Source: a virus
UHGV virus genome: UHGV-0081762
Direction: 5' to 3' (one strand)
DNA length: 37,921 nt
Below the pieces are notes generated by a model that saw nothing but the letters and a program-made list of their open reading frames with translations, ran no database searches and was not told where the DNA came from. Both the position numbers and the translations under genes were made by a program. The first letter of the stretch is position 1; every line of letters starts with the position of its first letter. Shown piece after piece: positions 2,512-10,657 of the stretch.

Positions 2512-2832
2512 TTAGTCATTGATATTCACCTTTATCGCGAACACCTTTACCGGTTTATCTCCGAAGTGTGGATGTGTGATTGTCTTCACTTCATATCCGC
2601 CATACGGGACGTCAATTCTGCGACTGGAATCGTCGCGCTTCGGATATCCCTTTGTGATAATCAGGCGGTCATACTCGCGGAACATAATTCGCTTATTCCA
2701 GTAGTCATTAAACAGGCGATACTCTTCCGTTTTCTCTCCGCGAATCATGGCATCGAAGTATTCACCTTTAACGGCAAGTTGCAGGTTAGCCACGGTTAAC
2801 CTCCTGAGGCGGTTCTGCTGCAAAATACGCAA
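2512..2832 (-). CDS. ASCH/DUF3850-like domain protein
   Basis: 106-aa ORF with GEYFDAMIRGEKTEEYR...REYD pattern resembling ASCH/PUA-like fold proteins common in phages (from memory). Confidence 0.45.
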   Translation of the reverse strand: MRILQQNRLRRLTVANLQLAVKGEYFDAMIRGEKTEEYRLFNDYWNKRIMFREYDRLIITKGYPKRDDSSRRIDVPYGGYEVKTITHPHFGDKPVKVFAIKVNIND

Positions 2833-3691
2833 TACCTTTATCCCAGATGGATTTTATGGTCGTCCACGTGACTGGTACTTTAATTTCAATCCGCCCGCTA
2901 CCGTCACAGGTATCGCAATCATCATCGCCAAAGCATTCCGGGCAGCTGATAAACGTAGTTTCTGAAAATTCACCGGATAGCGCACCCTTAGCGCCGTTCT
3001 CGGCTGTTAGTCTCTTCGGCACCACGACCCAACCATCCGGAGTTACCGGAGAGTTGCCATTTACATCGAAGTTTGGCTCTGCGTCCTGAACCAGGAGGAT
3101 GTAACCATTCTTGGCAGTATCAAGTTCTAACGCCTCGGTGACGGTGCCGAAATAGCGATTGCCTAAATCAGCATCACAAGTGCTTACATCAATGGAAACT
3201 TCCATGCCCTCGATTAATTCTGGCAAGTTGTAAGTTTGGCTTACAGGTTCGGCACCATGAAGCATGGCGTCGCTCCGCTCTATGCCATCCAGCGCGATTC
3301 GCAGTGCCTGAATTGTGGTAATGCTATCGTTTGGGGCTATTCCATATCGCTCGAATACAGCGATATGACCGCGCATAATCTCAGGCGTAAGCTCTTTGTA
3401 AGCATAAGCAAGCGACCCTGATGCATCATCCGGCACAACCGACGCAGGCGCGGCAGCATAAACAGGAATAACGTCCGCTTGCTCTTTATTGCTTTCATCC
3501 GTTAAAGCCCAGAATAATTTCCCGGCCGGATGTTTGAAAATATAAGCAACTGGTTCTGCTTCCAGCGATGCCAGAGCAATTCGTGCCAGTTCTTCCGCTT
3601 CTTCTGCTGGCAGTACAACGTTGCTACCCGGTCCGTATGTTTCGCGCCACTGATTGATTGTCAGTAGTCGATCTTTGGCAATAGTGGTCAT
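2786..3691 (-). CDS. Hypothetical 301-aa protein with C-terminal Cys-rich zinc-ribbon-like motif
   Basis: Long ORF; C-terminal CPECFGDDDCDTCDGSGRIEI motif. Confidence 0.55.
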   Translation of the reverse strand: MTTIAKDRLLTINQWRETYGPGSNVVLPAEEAEELARIALASLEAEPVAYIFKHPAGKLFWALTDESNKEQADVIPVYAAAPASVVPDDASGSLAYAYKELTPEIMRGHIAVFERYGIAPNDSITTIQALRIALDGIERSDAMLHGAEPVSQTYNLPELIEGMEVSIDVSTCDADLGNRYFGTVTEALELDTAKNGYILLVQDAEPNFDVNGNSPVTPDGWVVVPKRLTAENGAKGALSGEFSETTFISCPECFGDDDCDTCDGSGRIEIKVPVTWTTIKSIWDKGIAYFAAEPPQEVNRG

Positions 3692-4203
3692 GCCGCGTTT
3701 CCTTCTTTCTTATTAACAATTACACCGTCATATATTTCATTAAGGTGCCCTCTCAACTCCATACGCCTTAATGCAGATAACATGTAATCGCATTCAACCT
3801 GCTTATTTCCAGTAAATGGCTTATCGTCAGGATTACCCCAACAGCAATTACCCTTGGGCCACCCATGTACTTTCCGTACTCTTCCGTTAACAACGTGAAG
3901 TAATCCCCAGCCAGGTGGTAAATCCTCAATTGAAATAATTCCCGGCTCACTAATAAAGAATCGCCAGTCGCCCATTCCAAGAGACGGATTTTTACGAAAA
4001 CGCTTTTTTCTATCTGCCAACAAGTCAGCACGAGAACATTTCGCCTCTATCAGGCATGATGCTGAATTTCTGAATCCCATAGCATCTGGCTGTTCTCCGG
4101 TACTGGTTACAGCTATAAAGCGGTCATGAAAACAAACCTTGAACCCGTTGCGCTTAAGGAACTTGTACGCAATCTGACAGAGTTCGCGGTGTGTTAACGC
4201 CAT
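3688..4203 (-). CDS. Putative PD-(D/E)xK nuclease-fold protein (MmcB-like)
   Basis: ORF with D...EAK motif (DAMGFRNSASCLIEAKCSRAD); start placed at MALTH with strong AAGGAG RBS; longest ORF extends to 4275. Confidence 0.45.
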   Translation of the reverse strand: MALTHRELCQIAYKFLKRNGFKVCFHDRFIAVTSTGEQPDAMGFRNSASCLIEAKCSRADLLADRKKRFRKNPSLGMGDWRFFISEPGIISIEDLPPGWGLLHVVNGRVRKVHGWPKGNCCWGNPDDKPFTGNKQVECDYMLSALRRMELRGHLNEIYDGVIVNKKEGNAA

Positions 4204-4204
4204 A

Positions 4205-4393
4205 TCACTCTCCTTTAGTGCGCAAGTGGTTTTTCCAGCGGTTTTGCGCCGCGCTGGGCTTTTTGCAAAAACCACAATCCATCATCCCGTAATATTTCAT
4301 CAACCCCATCCGTCGGTTGCTGAGTCTCACCCACTGCCAGACGCCAGGAGCGTTTCTACGAACTAACAGAATCTTTGCTTTACGGTTTTTCAT
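4205..4393 (-). CDS. Small basic protein, paralog B (MKNRKAK...)
   Basis: 62-aa ORF; N-terminus and KKPSAAQNR segment paralogous to adjacent 58-aa ORF. Confidence 0.45.
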   Translation of the reverse strand: MKNRKAKILLVRRNAPGVWQWVRLSNRRMGLMKYYGMMDCGFCKKPSAAQNRWKNHLRTKGE

Positions 4394-4566
4394 CTTACAG
4401 CGTACCCTTTCTTCCGCCTGTTCTGTGACGCAGTAGGCTTACGCTTTGCGGCAAAAGCCACCTGACCAAATGGATGGAGTACCGCTATCTTATGGTTGCT
4501 AATAACCAGCTCCACCACACGCACAGGTCGCTGTAAAAAAAGTCGTTTTGCCTTACGGTTTTTCAT
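4390..4566 (-). CDS. Small basic protein, paralog A (MKNRKAK...)
   Basis: 58-aa ORF hand-translated from minus strand; AGGAGAG RBS; ATGA overlap with paralog B. Confidence 0.4.
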   Translation of the reverse strand: MKNRKAKRLFLQRPVRVVELVISNHKIAVLHPFGQVAFAAKRKPTASQNRRKKGYAVR

Positions 4567-4738
4567 CGCTTTGCTCTCCTGCGTCTCTTTGCTGCTCGTC
4601 GTGCCGCTGCAATACCGGTATGGCGGCGCTTTGGTGCCGGGATGATGTTGTCAGCCATCAGGACATGTGGCTTTGCAATTAGCGCAGAAGCCCAAAAACG
4701 AGTCGGGTACGGTAACAAGCCGATACATGCCACACGCA

Positions 4739-5494
4739 CTACTCACCTCCGTTGATGCGAATGCCAGCGGCACGGGAATCATTCCATCGCTTTACTTCTT
4801 CACGAATTACGTCAATGCATTCTTTCGAATCCATTAGGTAATCTTCATCAAAAAGCCTTTCCTGTTCGTTTTCTATCGCAACAATGATTGCTTCAACTAA
4901 CTTTTGTGCCTGAGAACCACTTTCTAACTCTGCAATGCGCTTCTCTGCGGCTTCCAGCTTCTCGCGCATATCGTCAACGTACTCGACCAGAGATCCGCCA
5001 GCAGGAATTTCGCACTCCTCGACCAGTTGGAAGTAGATATCAGCTGCGGCCCGTGTGTTGCTATGCCTAGCGTCGCCCATCTCACCTTCACGAAGAGCAT
5101 CGCGTTCGGCGGTAAGATTGGCTATTTTGCTGTCTTTGCCTTCCAGCTCAACGCGAAGCCTCCCTACCGTTAGCGCAATTTCCTCGTTCTCCTGGTCACG
5201 GCGTTTGATGTATTGCTGGTTTCTTTCCAGTTCATCCAGTAATGCCGTCACGGTAGCTGGATTGGCTGCGGCGATGAATTCAGCATTGGCCTGCTGTTCT
5301 ATTTGGAAATCTTCATCGAAACCGCTTTCAGGATGCGCTCCTTCAATTCTGCAAATGGGAATATATCCAGCAACTTCACGATGAATTAGCGCATCATCAC
5401 CATCAAATCAGCTCTTTCCATATTCGAGCGACCACTCGCCACACGTTGCTTTTTCTGCCTTAGCACGCAGTGCCTGATAATCAATCTTGCTCAC
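4739..5494 (-). pseudogene. Ead/Ea22-like gene interrupted by in-frame TGA (N-terminal 28 codons, stop, then in-frame continuation; GTG at 5251 could restart)
   Basis: Minus-strand frame reads [28 protein letters not shown]-stop-FDGDDALIHREVAGY... continuing into the 170-aa ORF 4739-5251; coiled-coil Ea22-like C-terminus. Confidence 0.5.
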
Positions 5495-6093
5495 TGGTTG
5501 CCTCCTTTGCGAAGCTGGGCAGCAAAGTCAACTAACCACTCAGTCATTTCAACCTTCCCTACCAGGTCTGAACCAGGGTGCATACAGCAATCACTCTGCG
5601 CCGCTTTGAAATCCTTATACTCATATTCTTGGGCCACCAGATTTTTTGCAGCTTCTATAGCAGCATCCACCCCCTGCGCCCGAACTTCAGCCAGGAAAGC
5701 ATCAGTGGCTGACATATTTCCTGTTGCCTTCATGGCCTTCAAAATAACCAGAACGCCATCTCGCCCAACCACCTCAGCGATAACCTCGGTGTTGTCGCCA
5801 ACAACATCGCAGAATGCCTGAACTGCCTTACGAGCCAGCTCATTCTCCGCCGCAAGCGCCGAAAACTTCTCGTGTGCCAACTTAACAACTGCATCAGCCT
5901 GCTTAATTGACTCAATCGCTCTCTGCTGGTCTTCGGACAGAGCCGAAATCTTGGCCTCCGCTTCAGCAAATTTGCGCACCAGATATTCAGCGTTTGTTTC
6001 GTTAACCTTTAAATCTCGTGGGATGCATTTACCTTTCAGAAATCCACCCATCTCAATTAGTGACATTTGTTTCATTTTTTCCCACTCCGCCAC
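5491..6093 (-). CDS. Ead/Ea22-like family protein
   Basis: 200-aa ORF with Ala/Glu-rich coiled-coil region, position in ea region. Confidence 0.5.
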
Positions 6094-6232
6094 ATCGCAT
6101 TCAGATATTTGTTTTGATTCACTGACGGAAAAGAATTTCTCTTAAGCAATTCCTCTCTCGATGGCATTGGCTTTACGCGTTGGCGAATAATCATTTCTGC
6201 CGGAAGAATGCCGGGATTGTATGCAAGTCCTC

Positions 6233-6514
6233 TCATGATTTACTCTCCACGAACTGGTCAATAGCCATGCTAAGTGACACACCTAAATTCTCGATATGTT
6301 GCTGAATATCCTGTAGCGTCTGCGCCTGAGATAACAGGATTTCACGGTTGCATAATTCTTTAACCAGATGCTCAAACTTGCTGTAATAACCGATACGGCT
6401 TAGTGTTTCTTTCCCTGCATTCTCGCCTTCTTTGATAATTCCTCTTTCGCTAAGAATCAGGTCGTGTTTGGTTCCGGTAATAACGTATTTTCCGAGGTCG
6501 ATGTTTAGCTTCAT
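6233..6514 (-). CDS. Hypothetical protein
   Basis: 93-aa ORF in operon orientation. Confidence 0.45.
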
Positions 6515-6856: not shown

Positions 6857-7345
6857 TTATTTGATAAGAAGTGAAGGTTTCCCAACTTTGAGTTGAGCAC
6901 CGGGGATATTTATTCCTGCTTTTAGTTGGTGTTTGATTGCCAACTTGTCGGCTTTAATTGTCGTTTCAAACTCAACGTATTCAGGAGGAAGGGCGCTTGA
7001 GTCGATGATTTCTACAGTTTCTGACGGTTTGCGGATTGTTACCTGGTGAATACCTGCTCTAATCTTTTTCTTGCCAACCATTTCAAGCGATGACGCTATA
7101 TACGCCATAATGCTATCAATCTTATTTTGAATTACTGCTGCTCGTTCATTTAGTGACTTTGCCTCTTCCTTGAGGCGTTCAGCATAACCAGATTCATTTT
7201 TAATAATGGCGAGAAGTTGCTCTATTTTATCGGTAAATTCTCCTTCCATGCCTTCTATTGTGTCAGCAATCATCTCTGGCTCTAAATCTGAATCCATCAA
7301 TTTTGCGTATTCATTGGCTATTTCATATAGTTTGCTCACTGGCAA
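6857..7345 (-). CDS. Siphovirus Gp157-like protein (recombination-associated)
   Basis: 162-aa ORF immediately downstream of recT; resembles Gp157 family as recalled. Confidence 0.45.
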   Translation of the reverse strand: MPVSKLYEIANEYAKLMDSDLEPEMIADTIEGMEGEFTDKIEQLLAIIKNESGYAERLKEEAKSLNERAAVIQNKIDSIMAYIASSLEMVGKKKIRAGIHQVTIRKPSETVEIIDSSALPPEYVEFETTIKADKLAIKHQLKAGINIPGAQLKVGKPSLLIK

Positions 7346-8225
7346 CCTCCAGTTTCGCTTTGCATTCTATGTAAATGGCTTGTACGTTCTGCTGCAATTT
7401 CATTCCAGATGTCAGGCGATATGCTTCTGCAAAATATCGCTTCAAATCATCCATGTTTTCTGCCTGAGCCATTTCATCACAAAGAAGTTGTGCTTTATCC
7501 ATTATTTCCTGCTGGCGTTTCCGTTCATCTTCGCGGATATCTTCCTCTGATTTGTGCGGCATAACTGGCTCCTGATGCATACCTTCATCTTCGTTAAGCA
7601 GGTGAATGGCATTATCCAGTCGCTGGGCTTTAGGCCAGTATTTGCTGGCGCGTTTAACTATTGTTTTACGTGCCATCTCTTCCCAGAATGTTTTCCACGG
7701 TCCATTCTTTGCCTTGCTCGTTGCTTCCACAGCTTTAATTTCTGCCAGACTCATTTCTTCAGTCAGGTAGTCACCATCTGCTGTTTTAACCGTGCAATAA
7801 CCACCAACAATAGAGCCTCGCTCACCAAATGCGTTGTATTTGTGGGTTGGTGCTGAATCAAGGCCATTTGATTCATAGGTGTCGTTTGAGTACACCAGTT
7901 TGCATTGCCCCCACTTAATTGAACCTGTCGATTGCGCAAGGTGAAGTAATCCCATGTAACTGATATCAAGGCACACCATGCCGTCGCGAGGAACCAGATA
8001 AGCCAGTTTGCTGGCCGGGTTTAAGGTGATGCCGATCGCCGCAACATTGATGATAGCGTTCTGTGCGCTGGTTGGATTTGCCAGTGCCGTTTTAGCCAGG
8101 TAATCATTTTTCTGGAAATACTGAATTGCAAACTGGCTTTCCTTAGCCCATGTCACCGTCTGTTCAGTCAATGCTCCGCAGAATAACTGCTCCTGCTGTT
8201 TAACGAATTCAACGATATTGCTCAT
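7323..8225 (-). CDS. recT: RecT-family single-strand annealing recombinase
   Basis: 300-aa ORF; position equivalent to bet/erf in early-left operon; sequence recalled as RecT-like. Confidence 0.75.
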   Translation of the reverse strand: MSNIVEFVKQQEQLFCGALTEQTVTWAKESQFAIQYFQKNDYLAKTALANPTSAQNAIINVAAIGITLNPASKLAYLVPRDGMVCLDISYMGLLHLAQSTGSIKWGQCKLVYSNDTYESNGLDSAPTHKYNAFGERGSIVGGYCTVKTADGDYLTEEMSLAEIKAVEATSKAKNGPWKTFWEEMARKTIVKRASKYWPKAQRLDNAIHLLNEDEGMHQEPVMPHKSEEDIREDERKRQQEIMDKAQLLCDEMAQAENMDDLKRYFAEAYRLTSGMKLQQNVQAIYIECKAKLEVASEQTI

Positions 8226-9554: not shown

Positions 9555-9944
9555 TTAGTCAGCGAAGGTTAAGACGAGAATTACCTTAATGATGTCTGCT
9601 ACAACAGACACGGCCATAGATAAACCAAAGACAATCCAAGCCATAGAGATGTCTTCACTACCATCGTATAGAGTTCCGTAATCACTGGTGTAAGGCGTAA
9701 ATGTCGCGCCTTGATACAATAGGTATAAGCTTGATCCATAGAGAATAAATGCAGATATCCCTTGTATTGCCATGATCACCAGAATCATGAAACGAGCTGA
9801 TCTATGCGCCCAAGCCTGGCTTATTTTTTCTGATAGAGATTTCGCAATAAAAGCATGCGCTAAGCCGTAAATTGTCGAGATTGCCAACATCCCAAAAAAG
9901 CTTGCTATAGCGGTTCCAACCATAAGCGCCCCTTGCGTGATCAA
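9555..9944 (-). CDS. Small integral membrane protein (about 4 TM segments) co-transcribed downstream of cI (rex/sie position)
   Basis: 129-aa ORF, ATGA overlap with cI stop; hydrophobic segments. Confidence 0.6.
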   Translation of the reverse strand: MITQGALMVGTAIASFFGMLAISTIYGLAHAFIAKSLSEKISQAWAHRSARFMILVIMAIQGISAFILYGSSLYLLYQGATFTPYTSDYGTLYDGSEDISMAWIVFGLSMAVSVVADIIKVILVLTFAD

Positions 9945-10657
9945 ACCAGCCTTAGTTTTGTCTCAATTGCAACGCCTATAATCTTGCAGTTTCCATTGAT
10001 TGGCACGAGAGGCCATGCAGGGTTAAGTCCCTTGAGGTATTTATTTCCGCCGTCGATTATCAGCTTCTTGAATGTTGCTTCGTTAGAGTCAGAAAGTTTT
10101 GCTATGACCAAGCTGCCGTTGATCGCCTCCCTTCCGGTATCGAAAAGAACGAATGTTCCCTCTGGAATGCTTAACCCAACCGGTGCCGTCATTGAATCAC
10201 CTTCCACTTTAAGCCAAAACGCATTACCTTGAATATGCGCGTCAGACTCAAGCCAAACATCTATGTCTTTAATGGTGTATGGTTCGCATGCTTCACACCA
10301 CGAGCCAGCCTGGATACTGCTTAACACCGGATACCTCTTTCCTGCTCTGTATTCCCCTGCATACCTTACGTTGGCATCGCTCTTAAGGCTTTCTGCCTGT
10401 TCTGCAACCTTGGCAGCAATTGACTGGCTAAAATCAGCAATTGAGACTTGCAACAATCGTGCAAAACCAGATGCAACCTCAACGTTTAGCGCATTTCTGC
10501 CATTAAGATAATGCCCTACCGCTCCTTGGGTGATACCCAGTTCATCAGCGATTGAGTATTGGGTTATTCCCAATTCTTTCTTTTTTGACTCATACAAAGC
10601 CTTAAGCCGCTTAGCGTCTTCCAGCTGTTCTGTCGTCAGTGATTTTTTATTTTCCAT
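9941..10657 (-). CDS. cI: CI-type repressor (HTH plus S24 LexA-like peptidase domain)
   Basis: 238 aa; N-terminus TTEQLEDAKRLKALYESKKKELGITQ closely resembles lambda CI; C-terminal FWLKVEGDSMTAP and FKKL motifs. Confidence 0.9.
   Translation of the reverse strand: MENKKSLTTEQLEDAKRLKALYESKKKELGITQYSIADELGITQGAVGHYLNGRNALNVEVASGFARLLQVSIADFSQSIAAKVAEQAESLKSDANVRYAGEYRAGKRYPVLSSIQAGSWCEACEPYTIKDIDVWLESDAHIQGNAFWLKVEGDSMTAPVGLSIPEGTFVLFDTGREAINGSLVIAKLSDSNEATFKKLIIDGGNKYLKGLNPAWPLVPINGNCKIIGVAIETKLRLV

Follow-up and report, generated by a model that had tools for sequence, protein, structure and literature searches.

A tandem pair of small basic paralogs of phage family PHROG 1380 in the early-left region of a lambdoid Escherichia coli prophage

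The tandem pair and its neighbours

Two small open reading frames lie in tandem on the minus strand of the window, the whole 37.9-kb stretch of DNA analysed here. ORF58 (4390..4566, minus strand) encodes 58 residues (MKNRKAKRLFLQRPVRVVELVISNHKIAVLHPFGQVAFAAKRKPTASQNRRKKGYAVR) and ORF62 (4205..4393, minus strand) encodes 62 (MKNRKAKILLVRRNAPGVWQWVRLSNRRMGLMKYYGMMDCGFCKKPSAAQNRWKNHLRTKGE). In RefSeq they are WP_000797289.1 and WP_000797279.1, respectively, both 'hypothetical protein', and every source name for a protein of their family is either 'hypothetical' or 'prophage protein'. The exact ORF58 sequence is present on at least 1000 contigs. Both proteins start with MKNRKAK. BLASTP aligns ORF62 with ORF58 at 37% identity over 54 residues (E = 5e-10), with KRKPTASQNR paired to KKPSAAQNR; the overall identity of the two is 33–37%. 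The 14-nt repeat TTACGGTTTTTCAT has exactly two copies in the window, against 0.02 expected in shuffles: the first (4553..4566, minus strand; ATGAAAAACCGTAA on the coding strand) spans codons 1–5 of ORF58, the second (4380..4393, minus strand) codons 1–5 of ORF62. Both proteins match the profile of phrog_1380, a catalogued phage orthologous group without assigned function, from end to end [ORF62: E = 1e-40, positions 1–62 of 62; ORF58: E = 6.5e-23, positions 1–60 of 62]. The BLASTP match, the repeat statistics and the end-to-end profile matches together establish that the tandem pair is real, far beyond chance. The earlier note on this DNA had described two paralogs with a common N-terminus, a shared ...KKPSAAQNR... 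segment, a DNA repeat at both starts and an ATGA overlap between them, and each of these features is borne out by the alignment, by the repeat count or, for the overlap, by direct reading of 4390–4393.

At this overlap (ATGA, 4390..4393, minus strand) the ATG of ORF62 (4393–4391) lies on the TGA of ORF58 (4392–4390), from which we infer that translation of ORF62 is probably coupled to that of ORF58. The Shine–Dalgarno sequence of ORF58 (AGGAG, 4576..4580, minus strand) is 9 nt 5' of its ATG and falls within the codons for the RRRRAKR tail of the upstream ORF. On the other side, the stop codon of ORF62 (TGA, 4207–4205) is followed after one base by the ATG (4203–4201) of a 171-residue ORF, so that these two do not overlap, and the Shine–Dalgarno sequence of the 171-residue ORF (AAGGAG, 4210..4215, minus strand) is contained in the last codons of ORF62 (TKGE).

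The window as a whole is a mosaic E. coli prophage of the P22-like/lambdoid kind, with vB_EcoP-611R6, Kapi1, mEp213 and HK446 as its nearest records. A minus-strand block runs from a CI-like repressor (9941–10657) through RecT (7323–8225) and Gp157 (6857–7345) to the integrase (97–1257), all on the minus strand, and ORF58 and ORF62 are situated between RecT and the integrase. They thus belong to the pL-side leftward early operon, at the equivalent of the lambda exo-xis region; the positions of integrase, RecT and repressor agree with the early-left accessory location that had been proposed. Around ORF58 and ORF62 there are no promoter- or terminator-like signals beyond chance, and because the pair has no detectable promoter or terminator of its own, it is most likely co-transcribed with the operon. 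An Ead/Ea22-like ORF (4739..5251, minus strand; Pfam PF13935, E = 9.8e-10) lies further upstream. A TAGTG overlap links its stop to the start of the next ORF, two ATGA overlaps follow, and another ATGA joins the 171-residue gene to the gene after it. Since every junction in the stretch is tight, the close packing is a property of the operon and not peculiar to ORF58 and ORF62.

Between the Ea22-like ORF and ORF58 is a further small basic ORF, missing from the earlier note (4563..4739, minus strand; 58 residues, GTG start, net charge +14; MRVACIGLLPYPTRFWASALIAKPHVLMADNIIPAPKRRHTGIAAARRAAKRRRRAKR). It begins MRVACIGLLPYPTRFW and ends KRRHTGIAAARRAAKRRRRAKR (MRVAC...RRRRAKR), and is called the MRVAC ORF here; it shares an ATGA overlap with ORF58. 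It matches phrog_13831 (E = 8.6e-42) and is found directly 5' of about 105 of 143 arrays of the PHROG 1380 family. Its pN/pS is 0.29 in its own frame versus 3.7 and 0.87 in the other two, which marks it as a coding partner ORF in its own right, although PGAP leaves it unannotated in two RefSeq relatives of the window (L001 and L002). Despite the similar basic tail it is not a third paralog: the family HMM at maximum sensitivity gives zero matches to it in any frame. The ...RR(A/T)KR ending before the stop is retained even at loci that lack the MRVAC ORF. The conserved module consists of the MRVAC ORF plus one to three copies of the family. In Stx phages a variant of the MRVAC ORF with an in-frame deletion of seven codons (51 residues) is observed.

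The downstream gene is the 171-residue ORF (MALTHRELCQ..., 3688..4203, minus strand), which had been called a nuclease-fold gene and thought to be translationally coupled to the pair. It matches phrog_9263 and phrog_631, neither with an assigned function, and gives zero matches in Pfam, NCBIfam, PADLOC and PDB. A nuclease fold is putative: a PD...E-A-K motif (PDAMGF...CLIEAKCS) and a weak PHROG match to a 'DNA repair protein' (E = 0.003) are suggestive of one. The junction has a one-base gap instead of an overlap, and the coupling is not conserved: the gene follows only 46 of about 140 arrays; other arrays are followed by a Cys-rich ORF of 69–71 residues (about 60) or by one of a dozen others. 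In L001 and L002 (3414–4054), two relatives that are identical in other respects, RefSeq marks the 171-residue ORF as frameshifted or partial. Varying as it does among arrays, the ORF is an interchangeable neighbour outside the conserved module. A functional operon with a downstream 'nuclease' was rejected on the same grounds, the downstream gene being variable and, in some relatives, a pseudogene. The junction ...CACTAAAGGAGAGTGATATGGC (4201..4222 in the window; also in L003, L004 and others) is kept before unrelated downstream genes, which is why most of them start with Met-Ala. For many phages the edge of DNA similarity to the window coincides exactly with the family's conserved C-terminal block (query 1–73 or 1–112), a typical lambdoid mosaic boundary. 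The next gene in the window (301 residues, 2786..3691, minus strand) matches PHROG 60 and PHROG 6847; relatives have the corresponding gene annotated as encoding a DUF551-domain protein. Its C-terminus is Cys-rich [CxxC...CxxCxGxG (CPECFGDDDCDTCDGSGRIE)] and resembles a DnaJ/Anti-TRAP-type zinc motif, with a Pfam Anti-TRAP match at E = 0.67 only.

Coding evidence, sequence types and arrays

Some 200 related loci, taken from phage records and from IMG/VR contigs, were translated in six frames and searched with a profile HMM for members of the family. The signature of PHROG 1380 is an M-K/N-N-R-K-A-K/R-x-L start, an S-N-(R/H)-(K/R) turn, one Gly and a K-x-S/T-A-A/S-Q-N-R segment near the C-terminus, in proteins of 55–70 residues; alignments and a codon table show that ORF58 and ORF62 each carry all of these elements. 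Other members are p50 and p51 of phiV10, the C-terminal 62 residues of VT2-Sakai orf8, and Min27 ORF09.

The frame is open over 58–65 codons in all 79 distinct DNA variants. Invariant residues are written with different codons: Ser26 with AGC, TCA or AGT, Gly37 with GGT, GGA or GGG, Arg59 with CGC, AGG or AGA, Asn27 with AAT and AAC in roughly equal shares, and positions 3–7 (N-R-K-A-K) with two codons each. The dN/dS ratio (Nei–Gojobori) of the whole gene is 0.35 within and 0.39 between sequence types. It falls to 0.008 and 0.066, respectively, over the first nine codons (pS = 0.51 between types) and peaks in the middle region at about 0.47–0.48. The codon turnover and the N-terminal dN/dS indicate that the shared N-terminus is conserved as protein and not as DNA, and conservation at the protein level rules out chance ORFs, RNA elements and pure recombination linkers. 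These data show ORF58 and ORF62 to be genuine protein-coding paralogs of the small orphan phage family PHROG 1380. Conservation in related phages, on which the earlier note had made its proposal depend, is found in 146 of 50,697 phage records, under purifying selection.

It is very improbable that the frames lack a protein function of their own and are chance frames, translational-coupling spacers or recombination linkers at mosaic boundaries. Such a reading could draw on the 3' ends and 5' flanks, which coincide with ribosome-binding sites and mosaic junctions and are kept before unrelated genes, and on the rare copies with frameshifted middles (P0054, P0060) or pseudogenes (L150, L189); the codon analysis has nevertheless already largely refuted it. 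The frame is open in 79 of 79 variants with two to three codons per invariant residue, the N-terminal dN/dS is 0.008–0.066, and synonymous sites are half saturated between types, a pattern that conservation at the DNA level cannot give. For the N-terminus and the core motifs, the idea of the conserved ends as a DNA-level linker is rejected by synonymous codon turnover; a DNA-level constraint is accepted only for the last five to seven codons and the immediate flanks (ribosome-binding sites and junctions). A structured RNA element (small RNA or cis-regulatory RNA) in place of a coding sequence, whose sole point in favour is conserved ends around a variable middle, has a negligible probability in view of the codon periodicity of the substitutions; Rfam gives zero matches at E ≤ 1 within 3000–6500 on either strand.

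About seven sequence types make up the family, and their middles diverge strongly. They are named A (ORF62-like), A', B (ORF58-like), B', C, C' and D. Copy number, for which the earlier note had suggested a survey of related phages, is variable: there is one copy at 69 loci, two copies at 73 and three at 2. Of the two loci with three copies, L108 is a true triple tandem and L016 has its third copy about 750 bp from a tandem pair. The tandem arrays surveyed are always head-to-tail with an ATGA overlap. Types B and B' stand at the head of every array in which they occur and were not seen as single copies, a rule that held even when loci were chosen by a B-type start; types A, C, C' and D also occur as single copies. 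The arrangement in the window, B-type followed by A-type, is the commonest two-copy order (at least 39 loci).

The C-terminal tails follow position in the array. Copies that are not last end in ...SQNRRKKGYAVR before the stop, a tail that carries the start of the next copy, while the last copy ends in ...AQNRWKNHLRTKGE, a tail that includes the AAGGAG used by the next gene. ORF58 is thus a B-type protein with an 'internal' tail and ORF62 an A-type protein with a 'terminal' tail, and type A as such is found with either tail. The last five to seven codons vary with array position because they carry the ribosome-binding site or start of whatever follows, and the last five to seven residues are thus set largely by the following sequence.

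A few members depart from this plan. In P0054 and P0060 the A-type middle is read in another frame and the family frame is regained before KPSAAQNR. Other rare variants, L150 and L189 among them, are plainly frameshifted or pseudogenised, and some are fused to the 171-residue gene. The frameshifted or fused rare variants are either sequencing errors or cases of occasional pseudogenisation or remodelling. P0001 and P0049 consist of an Ea22-like N-terminal stretch running into a full family member, P0035 of the family N-terminus joined to DUF4014 sequence, and P0089 of the family N-terminus joined to the 69-residue Cys-rich downstream protein; these four joined gene calls are recombination or read-through calls in or beside family genes.

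Distribution among phages, prophages and plasmids

Of 5426 complete E. coli genomes, 1197, about a fifth, have a match to the two-gene segment, at up to six places per genome, and 127 have both genes together. Plasmids account for 402 of the 1793 matching places. The phage records with tblastn matches (146 of 50,697) come from several unrelated phage groups: the Stx phages EDL933-Stx, VT2-Sakai, Min27 and phage 86; P1-like phage-plasmids such as RCS47; phiV10, O157 typing phage 9 and TL-2011c; and the Salmonella phages Sasha and Sergei, vB_EcoM-Ro157c2YLVW and the Vequintavirinae phage Av-05. ORF62 shares 98–100% identity with copies carried by Stx phages and by P1-like plasmids. This spread over several unrelated phage lineages argues for a selectable function.

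An exhaustive profile search of 1.84 billion representative proteins returned only 48 clusters, nearly all of 55–70 residues, including one spurious repeat protein (P0085) and several fusions or fragments. Among 185,579 species-representative genomes the sole match is a 228-bp contig (L006; JQCU01000388.1) labelled Acinetobacter idrijaensis, which holds one gene of the ORF58 type and the beginning of another copy; the contig most likely stems from contaminating E. coli phage DNA. By these searches the family is confined to Escherichia, Shigella and Salmonella phages and prophages, yet mobile among phage types. The block from the MRVAC ORF through ORF58 to ORF62 is 100% identical on plasmids of about 85–119 kb (L002 is pSA186_4), and likewise in phage records labelled P1. 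The identical block on plasmids and prophages points to recent movement between lambdoid prophages and the plasmids of this size.

Predicted fold and candidate functions

All seven types are strongly basic (net charge +11 to +18, pI 11.2–12.0, about 27% Lys plus Arg). An AlphaFold2 model of ORF62 from a 34-sequence alignment has a pLDDT of 83.4 and a pTM of 0.55; with a 14-sequence alignment the pLDDT was only 65. The predicted elements are a helix (4–11), three strands (19–25, 28–33 and 38–43) and a second helix (48–60). In the model the first hairpin carries the S-N pair and the second turn the Gly. Conserved side chains of Asn, Arg, Lys and Gln cluster on both terminal helices and on this hairpin. 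No relatives of the ORF58/ORF62 family were found in Pfam, NCBIfam, PADLOC or PDB; in PADLOC-DB, ORF58, ORF62, the MRVAC ORF and the 171-residue ORF have zero matches at E ≤ 1.

From the strong basicity and the placement of conserved polar residues on the helices and first hairpin, binding of a polyanion (DNA or RNA) is most likely. The reading that we favour, with a probability of roughly 40%, is that these are small nucleic-acid-binding (DNA or RNA) early proteins, the B-type acting with a partner copy. Each protein would fold as helix/three-stranded sheet/helix; the conserved basic terminal helices would bind DNA or RNA, and the variable sheet would set specificity or the choice of partner. 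Copies of the ORF58 type would act only with the copy that follows, possibly as a heteromer. Early after infection or induction, they would thereby modulate the expression of host or phage genes, as is reported for other exo-xis proteins.

The exo-xis genes of lambda (orf60a, orf61, orf63, orf73/TraR-like, ea22 and ea8.5) have the same position between the recombination genes and xis/int. Like them, the family genes are small, adjoin an Ea22-like gene and undergo mosaic shuffling, and early expression is to be expected. The family is without sequence similarity to any of these genes, however, and tandem arrays of diverged copies are reported for none of the characterised exo-xis proteins. The exo-xis genes modulate the lysis–lysogeny decision and RNA polymerase (PMC8614690). 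The region in Stx phages is said to contain additional genes as well as complete or partial duplications of genes (PMC8614690); the one additional gene modelled there is gp05, its expression not being known (PMC8614690).

An alternative to nucleic-acid-binding early proteins is that the family acts in anti-defence or inhibits host proteins, with defence nucleases or other prophages as targets; on this account the helix scaffold is common and the sheet has diverged in an arms race with variable host targets. We regard this as unlikely, though far from negligible. The accessory region shuffles fast, diverged types are stacked in arrays of one to three copies in many unrelated phage lineages, and the middle of the gene has the highest dN/dS (about 0.47–0.48). 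Even there the ratio is below 1, however, hence without sign of positive selection, and a PADLOC match is absent. In contrast to the extremely basic family proteins, many of the well-known anti-restriction proteins mimic DNA and are acidic. The supplementary text of two accessory-gene screens does not contain the family sequences.

The family might also be a modular set of small early proteins, binding nucleic acid or some other target, in which the two invariant basic helices form a platform and an exchangeable sheet confers specificity, with one to three types stacked per array and B-type copies forming heteromers. We consider this rather improbable. If true, it would represent a class of host-takeover or counter-defence factors not described before, carried by Stx, P22-like, P1-like and epsilon15-like phages and by the Vequintavirinae phage Av-05, and could affect lysogeny or the induction of toxin phages.

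A toxin-like or host-killing role, whether as a HicA-like RNA-cleaving toxin or as a Kil-like growth inhibitor, is a long shot. HicA resembles the family in size (about 58–62 residues), in basicity and in the predicted helix/three-strand/helix order, which is also that of the dsRBD. Where HicA has G-S-H the family has S-N-H/R, in both a conserved polar turn after strand 1, with a Gly after strand 2; types B and B' have SNHK at the first hairpin, the place of the catalytic His of E. coli HicA (...GSNHLKL...). Against homology, none of 34 members matches HicA_toxin (PF07927) at E ≤ 5 (a control HicA sequence matches PF07927 at 3e-7), and hhalign of the family with HicA gives a probability of 0.4%. 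The His after strand 1 is confined to types B and B' (20 of 79 DNA variants), with Arg in types A, C and D, including ORF62; unlike HicA, therefore, the family has no conserved catalytic His. Nor does it have a HicB partner: no HicB, RHH or HTH match was found among the neighbours (the MRVAC ORF, the Ea22-like ORF and the 171-residue ORF). Fold searches gave no significant structural match to HicA or the dsRBD, and the alpha-beta-beta-beta-alpha arrangement of the dsRBD is not matched in three dimensions. Homology to HicA or the dsRBD is thus rejected by the Pfam scan, hhalign, the fold searches and the non-conserved His. Further candidates for comparison are the arm-type DNA-binding domains of tyrosine integrases and AP2-like DNA binders built of three strands and a helix. 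A type I toxin (Hok-like) or holin-like membrane peptide was likewise rejected for want of a hydrophobic transmembrane segment: there is no stretch of at least 15 hydrophobic residues, and the Lys and Arg residues (about 27%) are spread along the chain.

The Stx phages that carry the family (933W/EDL933-Stx, VT2-Sakai, Min27 and others) have it in their exo-xis-type region, which influences lysogenisation and prophage induction and hence toxin release. The invariant basic ends, the variable core, the ordered arrays and one type that is never alone offer a handle for genetics and biochemistry, and the family is worth a test at the bench in Stx-phage biology.

Set beside PHROG 1380, the window ORFs show nothing different in kind; on the available data the pair is a further instance of a catalogued phage accessory gene family and not a new kind of system. 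What the present analysis adds is the proof of coding, the rules of type and order in the arrays, the dual role of the tails as coding sequence and ribosome-binding site, the partner ORF, and the rejected assignments. Searches of the literature and of supplements by sequence, accession and gene name found no mention of PHROG 1380 proteins, and the exo-xis review mentions duplications without characterising the PHROG 1380 ORFs (PMC8614690). The database record of phiV10 already notes the resemblance of p50 and p51.
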